Assembly (NCBI GenBank): GCA_041674805.1
Contig: JBAYVA010000002.1
Span: 83,234-147,233, forward strand
From: Candidatus Magasanikiibacteriota bacterium
Lineage (GTDB): Bacteria; Patescibacteriota; Patescibacteriia; Magasanikbacterales; UBA922
DNA: 64,000 bases
Direction of reading: 5' to 3'
Shown here one piece after another: positions 1,698 through 57,431 of this stretch. The notes beneath the pieces are model-generated. The model was not told the DNA's origin. It saw nothing but the letters and a program-made list of their open reading frames with translations, and made no database searches. Position 1 is the first letter of the stretch; each line of letters starts with the position of its first letter. The position numbers were made by a program, and so were the translations under genes.

Positions 1698-1771
1698 TCG
1701 GAGTGAAAGGACTTGAACCTTCGACCCTCTGGTCCCAAACCAGATGCTCTAGCCAACTGAGCTACACTCCG
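1698..1771 (-). tRNA. tRNA-Pro (anticodon TGG)
   Basis: Folded by hand as a cloverleaf. Acceptor CGGAGTG/CACTCCG, D-arm GCTC..GAGC, anticodon stem TCTGG/CCAGA around loop TTTGGGA, T-arm GGTTCAAGTCC. Confidence 0.8.
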
Positions 1772-1861
1772 TTATAAGTTAAAAGTTCATAAAGTTATAA
1801 AGTTTTTAAAGTTAAAAGTAACTTTTAACTTTATGAACTTTAAAAACTTTCAACTTCTCTG

Positions 1862-1933
1862 TGCCGAGGGGGAGAATTGAACTCCCGACACGAGGATTTT
1901 CAGTCCACTGCTCTACCACTGAGCTACCTCGGC
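1862..1933 (-). tRNA. tRNA-Phe (anticodon GAA)
   Basis: Cloverleaf with acceptor GCCGAGG/CCTCGGC, D-arm GCTCAGTGGTAGAGC, anticodon loop CTGAAAA, T-arm GGTTCAATTCC. Confidence 0.8.
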
Positions 1934-2027
1934 TTTAAAAAACAGTTGACACTTGACTGTTAACAATTAACTTTCAAAATTACATCAATGTTAAATGTCA
2001 CAAGTCAAATGTCAACTGTCGATAGTG

Positions 2028-2100
2028 GACCAGACAGGACTCGAACCTGCCACATCCGCCGTGCAAGGGCGGCGCTCTACCAGATGAGCTACTGGCCCAT
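2028..2100 (-). tRNA. tRNA-Ala (anticodon TGC)
   Basis: Acceptor GGGCCAG carries the G3:U70 alanine identity pair. Anticodon stem CCGCC/GGCGG around loop CTTGCAC; T-arm GGTTCGAGTCC. Confidence 0.8.
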
Positions 2101-41288: not shown

Positions 41289-41361
41289 GCGGATGTCGTA
41301 TAATGGCTTATTATCTCGGCCTTCCAAGCCGATGACGCCGGTTCGATTCCGGTCATCCGCT
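41289..41361 (+). tRNA. tRNA-Gly (anticodon TCC)
   Basis: Acceptor GCGGATG/CATCCGC, anticodon stem TCGGC/GCCGA around loop CTTCCAA, T-arm CCGGTTCGATTCCGG. Confidence 0.75.
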
Positions 41362-41449
41362 CTAAAGGCTTTGACCTTAAAATTTACACAGTGTGGTTAG
41401 TTAAAACGTTTAGTAGGAAGAATAAATATATCGTAGTATTCAAACATAT

Positions 41450-41523
41450 CGCGGGATAGAGCAGTCAGGCAGCTCGTCGGGCTCATAACCCGAAGGTCGT
41501 CGGTTCAAATCCGACTCCCGCAA
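41450..41523 (+). tRNA. Initiator tRNA-fMet (anticodon CAT)
   Basis: C1:A72 mismatch at the acceptor end and three G-C pairs in the anticodon stem (TCGGG/CCCGA), with loop CTCATAA. Both are bacterial initiator hallmarks. Confidence 0.75.
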
Positions 41524-41574
41524 CAAAGGTATTTACATTTTTTGTAAATATGTTAAAATGAATTTCGCAAAAAT

Positions 41575-41647
41575 GCGGTAGTAGTTCAGTTGGTAGAACG
41601 CTTCCTTGCCAAGGAAGAGGTCGCCGGTTCGAATCCGGTCTGCCGCT
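41575..41647 (+). tRNA. tRNA-Gly (anticodon GCC)
   Basis: Acceptor GCGGTAG/CTGCCGC, D-arm GTTCAGTTGGTAGAAC, anticodon stem CTTCC/GGAAG around loop TTGCCAA. Confidence 0.8.
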
Positions 41648-49438: not shown

Positions 49439-50089
49439 TTATTCTATATTTATTTTATCTCCCAAAAACTTTGGTTGAATATCAAATAATAAATCAAGCA
49501 TCATTTTGAGTCGTGCGAAGCTTTCCCTGATTTGTATTTTTGTATTAGCATAAGATTTTACATTACGAGCATTGTATCCTATAGCGTCTATACCTTTTTT
49601 GTTGGCAATATATATGGCACGTTCATTGTGGAATTTTTGTGAGATGATAGTAATATTCTCTTGTCCAAATATTTCTTTGCTTCGGACGACTGAGTCTAGA
49701 GTTCGAAAGCCAGCATAATCGAGGAAGATGCTCGAAGTCGGCACGCCAGCTTCTATCAAATCATTTTGAATAGTTGTTGGTTCATTGTATTTCTTTGTGC
49801 TGTTGTCTCCACTTACTAAAATAAAATCAATTTTGTTAGCTTCAAAAAGTTTTTTGGCAGCTGTAATTCTATAAGCATAATAAGCATTTATTCTGCCATC
49901 TTTCAAATATTTACTTGTGCCGAGTAATAATCCGACTTTGTTGTGAGGAATATTTTCTATTGAATCATAAATTTTTTCGTCAGTGTTTTTTTCTATTATT
50001 TTGTTGGTGATAATAATAGATGAAGAAAGAAAAATAAAACTCAAGAAAAAAATTAGTAAAAGTTTTAAGAATATTTTTTTCATAATCAA
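49439..50089 (-). CDS. DUF218 (SanA/YdcF/ElyC-family) envelope protein
   Basis: N-terminal TM, then DFILVSGDNSTKKYNEPTTIQNDL...ITIISQKFHNERAIYIANK, the DUF218 core. Confidence 0.65.
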   Translation of the reverse strand: MIMKKIFLKLLLIFFLSFIFLSSSIIITNKIIEKNTDEKIYDSIENIPHNKVGLLLGTSKYLKDGRINAYYAYRITAAKKLFEANKIDFILVSGDNSTKKYNEPTTIQNDLIEAGVPTSSIFLDYAGFRTLDSVVRSKEIFGQENITIISQKFHNERAIYIANKKGIDAIGYNARNVKSYANTKIQIRESFARLKMMLDLLFDIQPKFLGDKINIE

Positions 50090-50643
50090 AACTTCTCCGT
50101 AATATGCAAATGTTTTCTAATTTTATTTTTCCAAGTTTCAAAACTTTCTACCAAAGTTATCAATCCCAACATCACCATGATGAATACTACTGGCTGAGTA
50201 GAATATTGAGGCAGATTAAAAATGCTAAAATTTTGTAAAAATAATTTTAATAATTGCCAGATAATCATTGAGACTAGAGTTGCTAACAAAAATTTAATTA
50301 CGAAAAAATCAAAGTTGAGAAAATTCTGTATGAACTTGCCATCCATTTTTTTTAACCAATTAATATATTTTTGGGAGACAGGATGTTTTTTTGTGTATAG
50401 TAAAAATAATTTGATTATGAAAATAATGATTCCAGAAATAAGAATAGTCAACATAATATCGAAGACTACATGCCACCAAGTAGGGTATTCTTTTCTGATA
50501 GTATTAACCAAAGGTGTGTCCATTAGTTTTAAGCCCGCTGGCAAGGTGAGGGTGGCATAGAGGAAGACAATAGCCGTGACTCTCTGTATCCAGAGCAATA
50601 TTTTGCTGTGTGTTTTTTGGTTTGGATAGTATGTTTTGTTCAT
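50086..50643 (-). CDS. Hypothetical 5-TM membrane protein, translationally coupled to the DUF218 gene by an ATGA overlap
   Basis: ORF with hydrophobic helices and a 4-nt overlap with the downstream gene. Confidence 0.4.
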   Translation of the reverse strand: MNKTYYPNQKTHSKILLWIQRVTAIVFLYATLTLPAGLKLMDTPLVNTIRKEYPTWWHVVFDIMLTILISGIIIFIIKLFLLYTKKHPVSQKYINWLKKMDGKFIQNFLNFDFFVIKFLLATLVSMIIWQLLKLFLQNFSIFNLPQYSTQPVVFIMVMLGLITLVESFETWKNKIRKHLHITEKF

Positions 50644-50866
50644 AGTTTATAGACTTTACAAAGGTTCAATGTTATGTTATTTTAACATATGCGGAAGATA
50701 TTGACAAAAGTAGCAAAATGTGCTACACTACTCCGTTTATTACACATATATAAAAAGGCTTTATTTAGCCGATTAATTCATAATTTACAAATGGTTGTGA
50801 TTTCCATAAACCATTATAATGTGTAGTCATTTTAATTTATACATATTAAGTCTAATATATTCGTCT

Positions 50867-53788
50867 ATGAAAAAGAACTTTTTCGCTAAACTAGGCCATT
50901 TTTTCCTGGTTTCAGCTGTTTTATTCAATGGTTTTGGTGTAGCCTTTGTGAAGGCTGATGTTGTAGAAGTTTTGGGTATGTCTCCAAATACAGCAACTTT
51001 GTCTGAGGGTGACATTAACCCTATTTCTTTAGTAACAATTTCTAATTCATCTACTAGTACTATAAATCTAACATTTACTATGTCAGGTGAAGCTGTTAGA
51101 AGTATAGATGGTAGTGGTGATTATGAATTGTTTGTTGGGGAAGGTTCTCCATTTGTAGTTGTTGATACAAACTTAATAAGTGTGCCTGCAAATGATTCTG
51201 TCATCTTTCCTATAAATATTATAAATGACACAGTATCAGAAAATGCAGAATCTTTTGGTTTGACATTTGAAACAGCTAGTTATGATGATGAAAATAGAAC
51301 ACCTGTAGAAGGTTTTAGTTCTCGTGGTGCTATAAATTTTACTATCAATGATAATGATATTACACCTCCTACTTTTGATACTATTGTCCCTAGTCCATTT
51401 TCAAGAAATGAAAGTGATAATTTTGGTGGTATTGCTACTTTTATAAATAATGCTAGTACAACTTTAGATTTTCATTTTGAAATTAGTGGAACAGCTTCTA
51501 CATCTGATTATATAATTGAAACAACTAGTCGTAGTATAAATGAAAATGGAGATGTTATGGCGGTGCCTAATAGTGTGGATTTAGAAAATGGTATAATTAG
51601 TGGGGTTACAGGAAATGAAAAAAGAAGATTTAATTTTAAACCAGTAGAGGACACAGAAGTAGAAATTGATGAAACAGTTATTATTACATTGAAATATGCT
51701 ACTGATATTGAACAAAGAGTTTATGATTTTGCAGATATTTCTTACACTACTATTATTAAAGATAATGATACTGCATCCACTACTACCACAGCTAACGTCA
51801 CATTTTCTTTTTCAACTTCTACTATTAATGAAAATTCTGGTAATGTAAATGTTGCTAATGTTATTAATAATGAAAATCAAGATGTATCTGTGAAATTTAC
51901 ATTTTCTGGCACAGCAGTATATGGCACAGACTATACTTTGAGATCAGGAACTGGTACTTCTATTTTTGGTAATGGTACAGAAGCAGTACTTTTGATAGGT
52001 ATTAATAGTAGTAGTAGTTTTCCTTTGACTCTGAATACAGTTGATAGTGATAAAACTGTTGAAATTACTCTTACACAAGTAAATTTTGCGGATAATTCAA
52101 CAACAACATCTTTCACTGCAGGAAATGTTACAACACATACACTTACTATCAAAAATGTTCCTACATCAGGTGAAAATAATATTCCAACAATAAAAACACC
52201 GATAGCCACACAATATATAGATCTTTATGTTACTTCTACATTAACTATTAATAATGAAATATTAAAGAATTTATTTTTTGATTTAGATACTAATGATAGA
52301 GTTGGTATTAGTTTGACTAATAATACAGATGCTACTGTTGTAACAACAACATCAGACATAGAATTTTCTAGTTTAGTATTAACAGGTTTAAAAGTTGGAA
52401 CAAGTACTATTGAACTTACTGGTGATGATCATCGTGGTGGTATTGTTACCTCAACTTTCGATGTAATCGTTACTGATTCTACTCCTGTTGAGGGAAATAA
52501 TGCTCCAACATCAACTGTAATAGATGATAAAACATTGGAGGTTGGTCAGACTTTTGATATTATTCCTAGTGTTATTTTTGAAGATGTAGAAGATAGTGAT
52601 GATAAGTTAACTTATGGTGTAGAAATTAGTGCTGGTTCTGTTGTTTCTGTAACAACAACAAATTTTACAAATTCTTGGGCATATACTTTTACTGCTGAAA
52701 GTGTAGGTACTTCTACAATTACTCTTAGTGCAACTGATTTGGGTGGTCTTAGTACAAGTACATCATTTAAGGTAACTGTCACAGAAGATGTAACACCTAT
52801 ATTAATAAAAGAAATAGTTAATCAAACTTTAAAAGTAGGTGAAAGTGTAGTTTTGAACTTAAATGATTATTTTTCAGATCCAAACGAAGATGTCTTGTCT
52901 TTTTTAACAAGTATTAACGTTCCAAATTTAATTACTACAACACTTAATACTGAAACAAATAAATTAACAATTACTGGTGTAGCTATAGGTACAACTCTTA
53001 TGAGTGTTACTGCCTCTGATAGTCAACATAGTGTTTATGATATATTTAATGTCACAGTAAAAGAAAATAATGAAGGTAATACTGATAACAATACCGGTTC
53101 AAGTAACGGCGGTGGTAGTTTATTACCAAACACAGCTCCTCAAGCTTCTATGGTTGTTGGTCAAGAAGTAACTATCGAAGTAAACAAAGAAATTACTTTT
53201 GATGCTAGTAGTAGTGTAGATAAAGAAGGAAACATTAGATTTTATTTCTGGAACTTTGGTGACGGAAGTGATGAAGTATATTACACTGTCCCAACAGTCA
53301 AATATACTTATACTAAAATAGGTAATTACACTTTGAATATCAAAGTAAAAGATGCTTACGGTGCTGAGAGTAGTGCGCAAGTAAAGGTAAAAGTTGTAGC
53401 TGGCAAAGCTTCTACAAATACGGGAACTCCAAATACTAATACTGAAAGTGGAACTAAAACTGAAACTGAAACTACAACTTCTACTTCAACAACTGATACC
53501 CCAACTCCTGTAGAAGAAACTGGAAGTACTGGTAGTACAAATAATAATACTAACAATAACACTTCTGCTAATAATACTGAAGAAGAAGCAATAACAACTG
53601 AGGAAGAAAATACTTCTATAGAAGAAGAGACTACTTCTGAAAATACTGAAGAAGAAATTACTGAAGAAGTACCTGCTGAAACAACAGAAGAATTACCAAC
53701 TTGGATCAAGATCATCTTTGGCAGTGGTGCTCTAGCTGCTATTGCTGGCGCTGGACTTGCTATCAATAGAGTGAGAAAAAATGTGTAA
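50867..53788 (+). CDS. Giant surface protein A (about 973 aa from the MKKNFF start): signal peptide, Ig/cadherin-like beta-sandwich repeats, PKD domain, Thr/Glu-rich acidic stalk, and a C-terminal ELPTW plus TM plus RVRKN anchor
   Basis: Signal peptide MKKNFFAKLGHFFLVSAVLFNGFGVAFVKA. PKD segment ITFDASSSVDKEGNIRFYFWNFGDGSDEVYYTVPTVKYTYTKIGNYTLNIKVKDAYGAES. C-terminus EELPTWIKIIFGSGALAAIAGAGLAINRVRKNV. The track ORF starts 16 codons earlier at a non-conserved ATG. Confidence 0.7.
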   Translation: MKKNFFAKLGHFFLVSAVLFNGFGVAFVKADVVEVLGMSPNTATLSEGDINPISLVTISNSSTSTINLTFTMSGEAVRSIDGSGDYELFVGEGSPFVVVDTNLISVPANDSVIFPINIINDTVSENAESFGLTFETASYDDENRTPVEGFSSRGAINFTINDNDITPPTFDTIVPSPFSRNESDNFGGIATFINNASTTLDFHFEISGTASTSDYIIETTSRSINENGDVMAVPNSVDLENGIISGVTGNEKRRFNFKPVEDTEVEIDETVIITLKYATDIEQRVYDFADISYTTIIKDNDTASTTTTANVTFSFSTSTINENSGNVNVANVINNENQDVSVKFTFSGTAVYGTDYTLRSGTGTSIFGNGTEAVLLIGINSSSSFPLTLNTVDSDKTVEITLTQVNFADNSTTTSFTAGNVTTHTLTIKNVPTSGENNIPTIKTPIATQYIDLYVTSTLTINNEILKNLFFDLDTNDRVGISLTNNTDATVVTTTSDIEFSSLVLTGLKVGTSTIELTGDDHRGGIVTSTFDVIVTDSTPVEGNNAPTSTVIDDKTLEVGQTFDIIPSVIFEDVEDSDDKLTYGVEISAGSVVSVTTTNFTNSWAYTFTAESVGTSTITLSATDLGGLSTSTSFKVTVTEDVTPILIKEIVNQTLKVGESVVLNLNDYFSDPNEDVLSFLTSINVPNLITTTLNTETNKLTITGVAIGTTLMSVTASDSQHSVYDIFNVTVKENNEGNTDNNTGSSNGGGSLLPNTAPQASMVVGQEVTIEVNKEITFDASSSVDKEGNIRFYFWNFGDGSDEVYYTVPTVKYTYTKIGNYTLNIKVKDAYGAESSAQVKVKVVAGKASTNTGTPNTNTESGTKTETETTTSTSTTDTPTPVEETGSTGSTNNNTNNNTSANNTEEEAITTEEENTSIEEETTSENTEEEITEEVPAETTEELPTWIKIIFGSGALAAIAGAGLAINRVRKNV

Positions 53789-54158
53789 GATTGTTTGATA
53801 ATATAAAAAATAAAGAAGCTATTCATATATATTGAGTAGCTTCTTTTTTTATGAAGTTTTGATTGTTCACACATAGACTTTACAAGATATAAAGATTATG
53901 TTAATTTAATATATGTAGGATGTTGACAAAAATAGTATGGTATGTTGTTAATTTCTCTCATATTTAGATACATTCAAAGGCTTTATTTGGCCAATTAGTA
54001 ATTCAAAATGGTCGTGACCATTCACATAAACCATTGTAATATATAGTCAGTTTACTCATACTTAAAAAGTATGATAAATTTATCTATTAATTCATACTAA
54101 TTGAGTATGATATATTTAACTTATTAATTCAAAATTACCAAGTTTAATATATTTACTT

Positions 54159-57100
54159 ATGAAAAATAATTTTTTTGCTAAACTGGGAAACTTTTTTCTG
54201 GTTTCGGCTGTATTGTTCAATGGTTTTGGGGTAGGTTTGGTAAGTGCAGAATATGCAGAAGTTGTCTCTCCCACATTCTCTTTACTTGTTGATAATGTAA
54301 AAGAAGGAAATTTAGGAGAAACAACTACTTATAATGTTGGTGTAAAATATAATGGTCCAGTTTTGGTCTCTGATTATACTGTGGAAGTAATATTTTATAG
54401 TGTTTTAAATGATACTTTTGCTGAATATGGTGTTGATTATGAGGTACCTAATTCTGTGCCTAATTTGGAAGATTCTTCGTATTTTCTTACTTTTACGCCA
54501 GCAACACAAAATGATGAATTGTTTGTTCCTGTAACTGTTATGGGTAACGATACTATTAATAGTTTTAATGTTTTATTCAAATACATTATTTTTACTATAA
54601 AAGGTATTAATATCGACCAACCTGACCAGCTGTTTGGTTTGAGTATTGAAGATGATGATGTTCCTACTATTATTGAACCAATATTTACTCCCGCTACTTC
54701 TGTTGTCTATGAAGGTGTTGCTACAGGAGCTAATGTTACTAAGTTGGTAAACAATAATAATACTGATTTAATTTATACTATTGAACTTACTGGTGATGCT
54801 TTACTCGAACAAGAATTTGGATTGTCTGTTATTGATGAACAAAATATCTCTACACCAATCATGAGTAATTTTTTCAATCTTTCTGTACCAAGAAATTCTA
54901 GTTCTACTTTTTCTGTTCGTACAAATGGTATTTATGATAATTCGTCTTTTGATAATGTTGCAAAACAGACAATTTGGACTGTAACAAATGCGTTTGATGA
55001 GAGTATCTTTATTGATTATGATTTATCTTTAAGTAATATCAACTTTACTTTGGATATAAAAGATGAGGAAAATGATGTAGGTTTTATAAATCCAGCTTCA
55101 TCTGTTGCAGAAGGAATTTCATTGAATGACTCTAATTCATCACTTGTATACAACAATGGTACTGACAATGATGTGTCTTTGACATTTGAACTTTCGGGTA
55201 CGGCATCTTCTTTAACGGATTATACTGTAAGAACAAATGAATTGAGTTCAGGTTCTACTTGGGTAGTACCAAAAAATTCTATTAAATCTTTTCCTGTAGA
55301 TATCTTGAATGTAACTGGTGAAAAAAATTTAGTGTTTACAATTACAAAAATAGATTTATTAAATGACAATGGTACCATTAAAAATGGAAATATTACACCT
55401 ATTTTACCGAATGCACAGACACACACTTTGACAATTCTGGATAATGTTGTACCGCCTGTAAATCATGCACCTGTTGCAATTATGCAACCAATACTTTTGG
55501 GTAATGTTAATGTTGGTTCAAACTCAACCCCTGTTTCATTTTCAACCACTTTTTCAGATCCTGATTCAGATGTACTTACATATAGTGTAGAACTTTCAAA
55601 TCCTGTAATTGCAACATCTCAAATAACAGCAGGTGAGTTGGTACTTACAGGAACAAGTGTCGGTACAACAACAGTAACAATGATGGCTACAGATCCTGAT
55701 GGCTTGAGTGCTAGTACCACGTTTAGTTTGACTGTCGTAGAAAATAATAATGGTGGTGGAAATAATTCTCCAACAGTAAATATTCCAATAGCCACACAAT
55801 ATATTGATCTCTATACTACTTCCACATTAACTATTAATAATGCAATATTGCAGAATTTATTTTCTGATGCTGATGTTAATGACATAGTTGGTATTAGTTT
55901 GACTAATAATACAGATGCTACTGTTGTGACAACAACACCAGGCATAGAATTTTCTAGTTTAATGTTGACAGGTTTGAAAGTCGGTGCAAGTGTTATTGAA
56001 CTTACGGGAGATGATACACATGGTGGTATTGTTACCTCTACTTTTGCGGTAATCGTTAGTGACTCTACTCCTATAGAAGGAAATAATGCTCCTACATTAT
56101 CAACTACAACAGTATTTGTAGATAACGAAATTTCTTTGCAAGAAACATTTGGATCAAATCTTCATCTTTATTTCGAAGATGTTGATGCGGGTGATACATT
56201 AACTTTTTCAGCTACTACAACTGATGCTTCTATAGTGACAAGTGGAATTGACGCATTGGGTCAAATAACACTGACACCACATAATTATGGTACAGTTCAA
56301 GTAATTGTTACTGCCACAGATAATCAAGGTGCTAGTGTCTCTGATGCATTTTCTTTGAAAGTAAATACTCCACCAGAATTAACAGTAAATACTTTAGGAA
56401 ATAAACAAATTGATTTGAAAGTATCATCTAGTTTGTTAATAGATAGTAATACAATTCGTGGTGTTTTTACAGATAGAGATGGAGAAATACTTACTATTTC
56501 TGTAAGTGATAATAGTGATAATACTGTTGTAACAACTACTCTTGGAGAAGATGATTCTCTCACTTTACTTGGTTTAAAAGTGGGAACAAGTACGATTGAA
56601 ATCACTGCTGACGATGGTTATGAAATTACCTCTACTACATTTCTTGTTACGGTTGTAAATTCTACATCTGAAGAAACAGGGAATAATGGTGGCAACTCTG
56701 GCAGTTCAAGTGGATCTAGTGGCGGTGGTGGTTCTGCTCTTCTTTCTAATACAGCTCCTCAAGCTGCTATAACTAATGGTCAAGAAGTAACTGTGGAAGT
56801 AAACAAAGAAATTACTTTTGATGCTAGTCAAAGTACTGACAAAGAAAATAATATTAGATTTTACTTCTGGAACTTTGGTGATGATAGTGATGAAGTATAT
56901 TACACGGTACCAACAGTCAAACATACTTATACTAAAATAAGTAATTACACTTTGATAAGCAAAGTACGTGATGCTTACGGTGCTGAGAGTATTGCTGAAG
57001 TAAAAGTAAAAGTTGTAGCTGCTAAAGGTTCTACAAATACGGGAACTACAAATAATACTTCAAATACTAATACAGAAAGTGAAACTAAAAATGAAACTAC

Positions 57101-57431
57101 AATTCCAAAAACTGATACAACTACATCTGTAAAAGAAACTGGAAGTACTGGTACTACTACAAATACTAATAACAATAATTCTTCTAACAATACTGAAGAA
57201 GAAACAGTTATTGAAGAAGAAATTATAGAAGAAAGTACAATTGAGGAAGAAGATACTTCTTCTGAAGAAGAGTTTATTTTTGAAAATATCAAAGAAGAAA
57301 GTATTAAAGAAACACCAGTTGGAGAAGTAGAAGAACTACCAACTTGGATAAAAATCATCTTTGGTAGTGGTGCTTTAGCTGCTGTAGCTGGCGCTGGTCT
57401 TGCTATTAATAAAGTGAGAAAGAATATATAA
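54159..57431 (+). CDS. Giant surface protein B (1090 aa), tandem paralog of protein A with the same signal peptide, repeat modules, PKD domain, acidic stalk and ELPTW-TM-basic C-terminus
   Basis: MKNNFFAKLGNFFLVSAVLFNGFGVGLVSA. A repeated module is nearly identical to one in protein A (NIPIATQYIDLYTTSTLTINNAILQNLF...GISLTNNTDATVVTTT...LTGLKVG..IELTGDD). C-terminus EELPTWIKIIFGSGALAAVAGAGLAINKVRKNI. Confidence 0.7.
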   Translation: MKNNFFAKLGNFFLVSAVLFNGFGVGLVSAEYAEVVSPTFSLLVDNVKEGNLGETTTYNVGVKYNGPVLVSDYTVEVIFYSVLNDTFAEYGVDYEVPNSVPNLEDSSYFLTFTPATQNDELFVPVTVMGNDTINSFNVLFKYIIFTIKGINIDQPDQLFGLSIEDDDVPTIIEPIFTPATSVVYEGVATGANVTKLVNNNNTDLIYTIELTGDALLEQEFGLSVIDEQNISTPIMSNFFNLSVPRNSSSTFSVRTNGIYDNSSFDNVAKQTIWTVTNAFDESIFIDYDLSLSNINFTLDIKDEENDVGFINPASSVAEGISLNDSNSSLVYNNGTDNDVSLTFELSGTASSLTDYTVRTNELSSGSTWVVPKNSIKSFPVDILNVTGEKNLVFTITKIDLLNDNGTIKNGNITPILPNAQTHTLTILDNVVPPVNHAPVAIMQPILLGNVNVGSNSTPVSFSTTFSDPDSDVLTYSVELSNPVIATSQITAGELVLTGTSVGTTTVTMMATDPDGLSASTTFSLTVVENNNGGGNNSPTVNIPIATQYIDLYTTSTLTINNAILQNLFSDADVNDIVGISLTNNTDATVVTTTPGIEFSSLMLTGLKVGASVIELTGDDTHGGIVTSTFAVIVSDSTPIEGNNAPTLSTTTVFVDNEISLQETFGSNLHLYFEDVDAGDTLTFSATTTDASIVTSGIDALGQITLTPHNYGTVQVIVTATDNQGASVSDAFSLKVNTPPELTVNTLGNKQIDLKVSSSLLIDSNTIRGVFTDRDGEILTISVSDNSDNTVVTTTLGEDDSLTLLGLKVGTSTIEITADDGYEITSTTFLVTVVNSTSEETGNNGGNSGSSSGSSGGGGSALLSNTAPQAAITNGQEVTVEVNKEITFDASQSTDKENNIRFYFWNFGDDSDEVYYTVPTVKHTYTKISNYTLISKVRDAYGAESIAEVKVKVVAAKGSTNTGTTNNTSNTNTESETKNETTIPKTDTTTSVKETGSTGTTTNTNNNNSSNNTEEETVIEEEIIEESTIEEEDTSSEEEFIFENIKEESIKETPVGEVEELPTWIKIIFGSGALAAVAGAGLAINKVRKNI

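Follow-up and report, generated by a model that had tools for sequence, protein, structure and literature searches.

The conserved sequence upstream of two tandem surface-protein genes in an uncultivated groundwater bacterium, Candidatus Magasanikbacteria (Patescibacteria, or Candidate Phyla Radiation, CPR), is composed of two layers: the DNA of a divergent promoter pair and a structured leader RNA. We analyzed a stretch of 64,000 nucleotides (nt), referred to here as the window, in which surface-protein gene 1 (973 amino acids, aa; 50867-53788, plus strand) is followed by its paralog, gene 2 (1090 aa; 54159-57431, plus strand), and is transcribed divergently from a gene for a 185-aa membrane protein (50086-50643, minus strand). 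The leader RNA element is real, not previously catalogued, and narrow in distribution. Taken as a whole, the region pairs promoter DNA with a clade-specific structured 5' leader that would most likely serve as a 5'-terminal stabilizer or expression element, a reading to which we assign a probability of about 0.45. Folding and comparison of orthologs support the structure, and the function is what we infer from it.

A preliminary description of the locus took the similarity of the two upstream regions as a sign of a cis-regulatory RNA. Taken alone, conservation between paralogs is a weak argument, since the gene 2 copy is evolving fast (80-85% identity among strains, near neutral) and, in the window, no longer has a stable closing helix, P1. 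That description also held that, with neither conservation in orthologs nor covariation, the leaders would be duplication residue. Both are present, at least before gene 1, where the element is not mere residue because it is kept in orthologs with saturated neutral sites and because its pairs show compensatory changes.

The three-way-junction module of leader 1

At least 27 orthologous loci were assembled from homologs of the surface protein and the 185-aa protein; protein-guided scans of genome and metagenome collections gave at least eight loci. Leaders before the first or only surface-protein gene were called type 1 and fall into about four deep lineages (the window with L002, L014, and L016; L006; L013 with L020; and L025). 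Leaders of type 2, which precede the second gene, came from five strains.

The module of leader 1 is an AU-rich element of ~90 nt on the plus strand (50739-50827), built by three helices. P1 (50739-50749 / 50816-50827) carries one bulged A, P2 (50757-50760 / 50767-50770) contains block 2, and P3 (50790-50796 / 50809-50815) is part of block 3; both blocks belong to the set of three that the preliminary description had recognized in the two leaders. Directly 3' of P1 lies a single-stranded block, CAUUUUAAUUYAUAC (50828-50844, plus strand), which is invariant except at the Y in all type-1 lineages and whose UUAAUUYAUA recurs in the P2-P3 junction (50773-50782). The proximal 35-nt unit (50832-50866, plus strand) ends at the start codon and has a conserved UAAUAUA 8 nt before the AUG but no Shine-Dalgarno (SD) sequence. 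The module itself ends 40 nt before the AUG, and the start region of gene 1 is unpaired with it in both the minimum-free-energy (MFE) and the centroid fold.

Three lines of evidence support this structure. First, the three-way junction is both the MFE and the centroid fold of leader 1 from ~50735. Alignment of the two leaders and of their orthologs, followed by RNAalifold on eight type-1 leaders, recovered the same shared junction with some compensatory changes. Second, leaders of all four deep type-1 lineages adopt similar folds, at z-scores against shuffled sequences of -3.3 (window), -3.2, -3.6, and -2.1. The fold is, as a stabilizer is expected to be, both more stable than chance (z -2.1 to -3.6) and conserved, with 91% of pair cells kept. 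Third, when the 13 distinct modules were aligned with MAFFT from sequence only, standard pairs filled 91.1% of pair cells, versus 25-40% with the partners slid. Double-sided changes affect four pairs and 13 cells, and their covariation score was reached by none of 500 shuffles, with a similar outcome on a model-fitted alignment. Within P3, one A-U pair becomes C-G in L013 and L020, and the neighboring A-U pair becomes G-C in L025, with a U.G pair beside it, while the distance between the P3 arms ranges over 9-17 nt among lineages. The conserved U.G pairs point to plus-strand RNA as the conserved molecule rather than a DNA palindrome or minus-strand RNA, and the variable arm spacing makes P3 unsuited to a protein operator.

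These pairing data bear on an explanation at the level of DNA, by which the leader would be conserved for further promoters and operator sites. The AATGGTT/AACCATT palindrome would be an operator, and the -10-like hexamers TATAAT (50815-50820) or TAATAT (50854-50859) would yield a message with little or no leader. Many genes of this genome do have -10-like hexamers near the ATG and no SD, and UAAUAUA stands 7-9 nt before the ATG in every leader with the module and in some orthologs whose leaders are short. There is also a promoter-like plus-strand sequence upstream, TTTACA-17-TGT-TATTTT (50655-50683), whose counterpart in copy 2 is invariant in five strains, and tandem promoters have a precedent in the slpA genes of Lactobacillus, for which two have been described (PMC10221546). 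We nonetheless consider this explanation improbable. The TATAAT hexamer has no -35 partner and is replaced by TGTATT, TGTAAT, or TTATGT in other lineages, and a second promoter at this site was rejected as weak, since the hexamer is not kept there as a -10 element. The P3 arms remain complementary through double changes and U.G pairs at 9-17 nt spacing, as would suit an RNA hairpin but not a protein site of fixed geometry, and it is the canonical TTGACA-17-TAnnnT that is kept in every ortholog.

The module is also under selective constraint. At four-fold degenerate sites of the 185-aa gene, the window is 81%, 73%, and 62% identical to L002, L016, and L015, whereas identity to L006, L020, and L025 is 36-51%, which is saturated. 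The corresponding module identities are 99%, 98%, and 99% for the first three and 62-69% for the others. Among four close strains, variable columns number 13/57 in the divergent-promoter part, 3/34 in the promoter, 2/93 in the module, and 6/39 in the proximal unit, against 23 of the 40 four-fold sites in the adjacent 185-aa gene. The module differs from these four-fold sites with a Fisher p of 5e-13 and from the flanking intergenic parts (19/96) with a p of 1e-4; its two variable positions (50771 and 50807) are both unpaired. The patchiness of variation along the intergenic region points to selection on the module rather than to one recent recombination tract, and the variable proximal unit between the module and the codons likewise argues against a single recent tract.

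Recombination is central to another explanation, in which the leaders resemble each other by inheritance and diverge little among strains because a constant gene end is exchanged, with no RNA function. The duplication did include the first bases of the neighboring gene (TTGTTCAT changed to TTGTTCAC). The surface genes are mosaic, with a constant 5' end and 3' half and an N-terminal 1.2 kb that is unalignable between paralogs and strains; codons 1-24, too, show almost no variation at synonymous sites; and the type-2 module diverges at a near-neutral rate (80-85% versus 62-81% at four-fold sites). What makes this account doubtful as a full explanation is that close-strain variation is patchy and not tract-like, that the stems are kept by compensatory changes where neutral sites are saturated, and that in each of the four deep type-1 lineages the fold energy is lower than that of shuffles. 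Loci for mosaic surface proteins whose 5' ends stay constant are known, for example the sap genes of Campylobacter fetus. As in sap, promoter-proximal and signal-peptide sequence is common to paralogs and alleles while the exposed part is replaced; unlike in sap, neither an inversion system nor promoterless cassettes were seen, and each paralog has its own upstream region.

Several observations concern the coding sequence that follows leader 1. In codons 1-24 of gene 1 (50867-50938), which encode the signal peptide, 2 of 24 third positions are variable, versus 23 of 40 four-fold sites in the neighbor, and over its first 60 nt the gene shows 97% identity even with L025, a lineage saturated at neutral sites. 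Just past the AUG, the codons for Lys-Lys-x-Phe-Phe form a small hairpin. We also considered, and rejected, the possibility that the 3' arm of P3 pairs at long range with codons of the signal peptide (AAACCAUU with AAUGGUUU; inverted repeats I8 and I16): the coding partner reads AATAGTTT in L016 and AATACTTT in L013 and L020, and the leader shows no corresponding change. The mosaic portion of the surface genes (50867-52170 compared with 54159-55750 and with strains L002, L014, and L016) leaves the N-terminal ~400 aa unalignable, which suggests diversifying selection or cassette-like replacement.

The distribution of the module is narrow. A covariance model searched against 247 kb (the window and 21 loci) matched only leaders, type 1 at 92-119 bits and type 2 at 41-54 bits, and found no further copies elsewhere in the window or in these loci. 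Five orthologous loci with a 185-aa protein of at most 70% identity (L024, L008, L012, L018, and L026) have the same promoter followed by a ~45-nt leader that lacks the module, which restricts the module to one Magasanikbacteria subclade. In a DNA-pattern scan of viral contigs, the one match, from a giant-virus bin, was due to chance and lacked the remainder of the module. Searched at gathering thresholds, Rfam identified only nine tRNAs in the whole window. At E<=10 it gave two chance-level matches within 50500-54300, both outside the module and at 20 bits against cut-offs of 47 and 90, so that the leaders match no Rfam family.

Divergent promoter DNA in the copied upstream region

The two upstream regions are alike over more than the leader: blastn aligns them at 70.6% identity over 228 nt (E 4e-20), and column identity in the alignment is 78%. 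All three blocks of the preliminary description are where it placed them, far beyond chance and unique to the two sites. ATAGACTTTACAA (block 1) occurs exactly twice in the window, at 50649 and 53873, AAAGGCTTTATTTRGCC (block 2) at 50754 and 53976, and CATAAACCATTRTAATRTRTAGTCA (within block 3) at 50805 and 54025, with zero occurrences expected of each. Copy 2 departs slightly from the third block as it was written: it reads GTGACCATTCACATAAACC there, with two extra bases. The TTGACA reported before both genes is likewise present, at 50701-50706 and 53923-53928.

Upstream of the module, the conserved sequence is that of back-to-back promoters. Gene 1 has a putative promoter, TTGACA-17-(TG)C-TACACT (50701-50729, plus strand), with 10 of 12 consensus matches, a TG extension, and a predicted start at ~50735-50737; its TTGACA-17-TAnnnT is conserved in all orthologs. 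On the minus strand, the strong putative promoter of the 185-aa gene, TTGTCA-17-TGT-TAAAAT (50679-50707), also has 10 of 12 matches and a TG. Its -35 box, TTGTCA, overlaps the plus-strand TTGACA, and its TG-n-TAAAAT is kept even in orthologs at 57-61% protein identity in an alignment of 12 leaders that includes distant sequences. The region therefore holds two -35/-10 pairs on opposite strands, each with 17-nt spacing and conserved in orthologs, as expected of a divergent sigma-70-type pair. It shares with known divergent overlapping sigma-70-type promoters the common -35 region (TTGACA/TTGTCA) and an extended -10 at 17 nt on each side. Nothing about it is unusual, and this ordinary part of the locus accounts for block 1 and for the TTATGTTA block.

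This architecture divides the conserved blocks, all of which had been assigned to the leader. Blocks 2 and 3 lie inside the predicted transcript and behave as a structured, constrained RNA element. Block 1 (ATAGACTTTACAA; 50649-50661, minus strand) stands 6-18 nt ahead of the 185-aa gene's start codon, within that gene's 5' untranslated region (UTR), and the TTATGTTA..TAACAT block lies upstream of the TTGACA box as part of the extended -10 of the 185-aa gene. Because they are upstream of the -35 box of the surface gene, neither of the two is leader RNA; judged from their position, they are promoter and 5'-UTR DNA of the neighbor, copied with the duplication. At the position where the 185-aa gene starts in copy 1, with its start codon in TTGTTCAT, copy 2 still reads TTGTTCAC, so the whole intergenic region was duplicated.

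The extent of the leaders and of their conservation also needs adjustment. A length of ~200 nt suits gene 2, with a predicted 5' UTR of about 205 nt, whereas that of gene 1 is about 131 nt. The coding sequences have diverged more than the leaders, as had been stated, over the first ~1.2 kb, where no DNA similarity is detectable and amino-acid identity is 27%. This does not hold for the middle and 3' parts, where DNA identities of 84.8% over 343 nt and 78.8% over 693 nt exceed the similarity of the leaders. At 973 and 1090 aa, the proteins are large rather than giant.

A proposed 5'-terminal stabilizer and competing functions

In the mechanism that we favor, the compact promoter pair with overlapping -35 boxes would drive the surface-protein gene rightwards and the 185-aa gene leftwards; this whole region was copied when tandem duplication gave rise to gene 2. 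The same distance, 9 nt, separates the -10 hexamer from P1 in every type-1 lineage, even though these 9 nt differ. P1 begins at about +4 if transcription starts 7 nt past the -10 hexamer, as predicted from the promoter consensus. By virtue of this constant spacing, the gene 1 transcript is predicted to begin with 3-4 unpaired bases, followed by the closed three-way junction. A helix at the extreme 5' end would hinder 5'-end-dependent decay by pathways of the RppH plus RNase J/E/Y type, so the message may last longer while its AU-rich, SD-less start region stays free. The outcome would be high, steady expression of an abundant surface protein. In this picture the module originated in a single Magasanikbacteria subclade and, before gene 2, came under relaxed constraint, with a leader lengthened by triplication of the proximal unit.

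Two characterized leaders, both among the 5'-terminal stabilizers of the ompA/slpA/vacA type, offer a parallel. The 5' UTR of slpA forms a stem-loop, and its message has a 15-min half-life (PMC10221546); in Helicobacter pylori, a stem-loop in the 5' UTR of vacA stabilizes the mRNA, for which an RppH/RNase J rationale has been given (PMC4843948). Like these (PMC10221546; PMC4843948), leader 1 is a long 5' leader of a surface- or secreted-protein gene with a strong promoter and a sequence conserved among strains, with predicted pairing within a few nt of the 5' end and an accessible start region. It differs in having a three-helix junction instead of a simple hairpin, in lacking sequence similarity to either, and in residing in a host without SD usage. 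Its loops and 3' single-stranded block are also constrained, and it comes from an uncultivated CPR lineage.

A number of points weigh against the stabilizer. First, covariation supports the module modestly: the comparison comprises about four type-1 lineages plus type 2, and the double changes represent about five independent substitution events. P1 is invariant within type 1, so that its double changes come only from comparing type 1 with type 2, where P1 is weak, and P2 is broken in L025 (GUCU..AGCC). Second, the helices are AU-rich and of moderate stability (-20 kcal/mol for 96 nt), and the start site of gene 1 is predicted from the promoter consensus only. Third, homogenization by recombination of a promoter-leader-signal-peptide handle could explain some of the conservation. 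Finally, the loops, the junctions, and the 3' single-stranded block are near-invariant among close strains, which a pure stabilizer leaves unexplained. These near-invariant unpaired parts hint at sequence-specific recognition.

Such recognition would be expected of a regulatory sensor, that is, a new riboswitch-like or protein-binding leader that tunes surface-protein expression to a signal, for example through autoregulation by the surface protein or through a dedicated RNA-binding protein that recognizes UUAAUUYAUA. The three-way-junction architecture would suit this role, as would the unpaired positions, which are as invariant as the paired ones among close strains (2/93 variable), and the 14-nt single-stranded block past P1, which is invariant across all type-1 lineages. 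UUAAUUYAUA recurs between P2 and P3, past P1, and where the repeat units of leader 2 begin; three of its six matches in the window fall in the leaders. In type 2, a second ACCAUU arm gives two mutually exclusive P3 pairings. Neither leader, however, has an expression platform: there is no terminator and no sequestration of the start, and the module ends 40 nt or 110 nt before the AUG. The junctions J1/2 and J2/3 and the P3 loop vary in length and sequence (L006, L013, and L025), unlike ligand-binding cores, the distribution is very narrow, and a single gene family is involved. The element shares with the riboswitches and three-way-junction leaders of Rfam its 5'-UTR position, its junction, its cross-species conservation, and some covariation; it differs from them in its variable junctions and in preceding an adhesin-like surface gene and not one for metabolism or transport. 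With no Rfam match at E<=10 and no expression platform, the suggestion of a riboswitch in the preliminary description gains little support, and a sensor of any kind is unlikely, if less so than the explanations at the level of DNA or of exchange between gene ends.

A bolder version also has little probability. Patescibacteria cannot be cultured by themselves and rely on touching other cells through their surface, and the module, with its repeated single-stranded UUAAUUYAUA motif, could conceivably be the first regulatory leader RNA specific to CPR/Patescibacteria, bound by a protein or small molecule and switching hypervariable adhesins, perhaps on contact with a host cell.

Two other proposals of the preliminary description fit the leaders poorly. 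No helix of the kind found in RNA thermometers (ROSE, fourU) occludes an SD or AUG in either leader. A classical thermosensor is unlikely because the structure misses the start codon and because the genome hardly uses SD sequences (3/42). Control by phase variation or attenuation, through an invertible promoter, a slipped-strand tract, a terminator/antiterminator, or a leader peptide, is largely refuted for the window and deserves very little credence. Surface-protein genes are classical targets of such control, and a 118-nt insertion found in leader 2 of two other strains holds a G-tract, 6 versus 8 in length. In the window, no inverted repeats flank the promoters and no homopolymer or short tandem tract occurs around 50644-50866 or 53847-54158, nor does either leader contain a terminator-like hairpin. 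The small open reading frame (ORF) at the ATG of AATGGTT shifts its frame and stop between strains, and a leader peptide from ATGGTTGTG was rejected on these grounds: it has 5-12 codons with frames and stops that differ by strain, its ATG is CTG in L013, and no terminator follows.

An N-terminal extension of gene 1 from the ATG at 50819, within the 3' strand of P1, was also rejected, as stops are encountered in L006 and L013. A public gene call at L007:4943 uses the equivalent ATG (894 aa, with 16 added residues); the start is not conserved, and the call is probably a mis-annotation.

The copy before gene 2 and the setting of the locus

Leader 2: the copy before gene 2 retains a recognizable module (53958-54050, plus strand; covariance-model match of 47.7 bits, E 3.8e-6). 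P2 (53979-53982 / 53989-53992, plus strand) has a U.G closing pair, and P3 (54007-54012 / 54030-54035, plus strand) is accompanied by an extra inner ACCAUU arm (54017-54022, plus strand) that permits an alternative tetraloop hairpin. In the window, a G x A mismatch interrupts the P1 equivalent, which is not predicted, and the fold reaches a z-score of -0.9. The module ends about 110 nt before the AUG, and the start region is unpaired with it in the MFE and centroid folds. The intervening sequence consists of three tandem proximal units of 35 nt (54051-54085, 54087-54121, and 54124-54158, plus strand), the first two of which form hairpins (UCAUACU-loop-AGUAUGA). In two other strains, leader 2 contains a GC-rich insertion of 118 nt (L001:3062-3180 and L014:3608-3728) with a hairpin, CCCGACTYCGCCCAAGGCGG...GTCGGG, followed by the G-tract. 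A TTAAT duplication seems to flank this stretch. The insertion itself matches nothing in Rfam and has no further copy among the loci compared; it may be a small mobile element with a slippage-prone tract. The low conservation (only 80-85% identity among strains), the lost P1, the triplicated unit, and the strain-specific insertions thus characterize leader 2, from its sequence, as plastic and subject to relaxed constraint, with P2 and P3 retained and P1 weak or lost.

The promoter of copy 2 is less clear. Its region (53923-53946, plus strand) has TTGACA at 53923-53928, and a promoter scan found no acceptable -10 at 16-18 nt from this box, only TGGTATGTT at 12 nt; the candidate TGG-TATGTT (53938-53946) is non-canonical. 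If TGGTATATT serves as the -10, the unpaired 5' tail would be 9 nt or more. Upstream lies the duplicated divergent-promoter region (53862-53915, no strand assigned), with block 1 and the relic of the 185-aa gene start (TTGTTCAC for TTGTTCAT). A 39-nt core within it, TCACACATAGACTTTACAAGATATAAAGATTATGTTAAT, is invariant in five strains, though no 185-aa gene follows. It could hold an upstream plus-strand promoter for gene 2 (TTTACA-17-TGT-TAATTT) or give a short antisense RNA that runs into a bidirectional terminator. The intrinsic terminator of gene 1 (53812-53846, plus strand) has a 14-bp stem with an A-run before and a T-run after it, from which it is possibly bidirectional. An ORF of 172 aa (53356-53874, minus strand), antisense to the 3' end of gene 1, passes through this terminator and has a new ATG start beside the relic of the 185-aa gene start; it is probably spurious.

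Surface proteins and neighbors: the gene 1 protein has a signal peptide, Calx-beta-like and PKD domains, and a C-terminal anchor of the ELPTW-hydrophobic-RVRKNV type; it shares 100% identity with a protein assigned to Candidatus Magasanikbacteria. The tandem gene 2 protein is likewise secreted, with PKD and Calx-beta-like domains; the two signal peptides are near-identical, and both proteins have the C-terminal ELPTW-hydrophobic-basic anchor. At the C-termini (53689-53788 and 57330-57431), an acidic Thr/Glu-rich spacer precedes an identical ELPTWIKIIFGSGALAA-AGAGLAIN-VRKN tail, a layout like that of an LPXTG sorting signal with a non-canonical motif. NCBIfam gave no match for the two surface proteins. 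The 185-aa protein is multi-pass and matches no Pfam family; it scores 19.5 bits against the NCBIfam model of an oligosaccharide repeat-unit polymerase, below the cut-off of 40. Among 5.8 billion proteins it forms only 13 clusters, all from Magasanikbacteria-like sources. Its gene is the divergent neighbor of a surface-protein gene in every orthologous locus listed (L002-L027), and the protein may be functionally tied to the surface proteins.

With respect to the genome at large, an SD-like motif precedes 3 of the 42 long ORFs of the window, and both surface-protein genes are without one. Many window ORFs have -10-like hexamers near the ATG. This sequence pattern suggests that short or absent leaders are the norm here. 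The nine tRNA genes of the window (1698-2098, 9702, 35369, 40080, and 41289-41647) are in several cases clustered.

To our knowledge, almost nothing is known of gene regulation in Patescibacteria, and our literature search found no paper on cis-regulatory RNAs native to the group. The practical weight of the present element is modest, because its distribution is narrow and its function is one that we infer. The locus shows how tandem duplication copied a compact divergent promoter together with its leader, and how the copies then went separate ways. If our reading is true, a leader placed before fast-evolving surface proteins would offer a handle for expression tools, and this conserved structured leader would join the small number of candidate cis-acting RNA elements from Patescibacteria.

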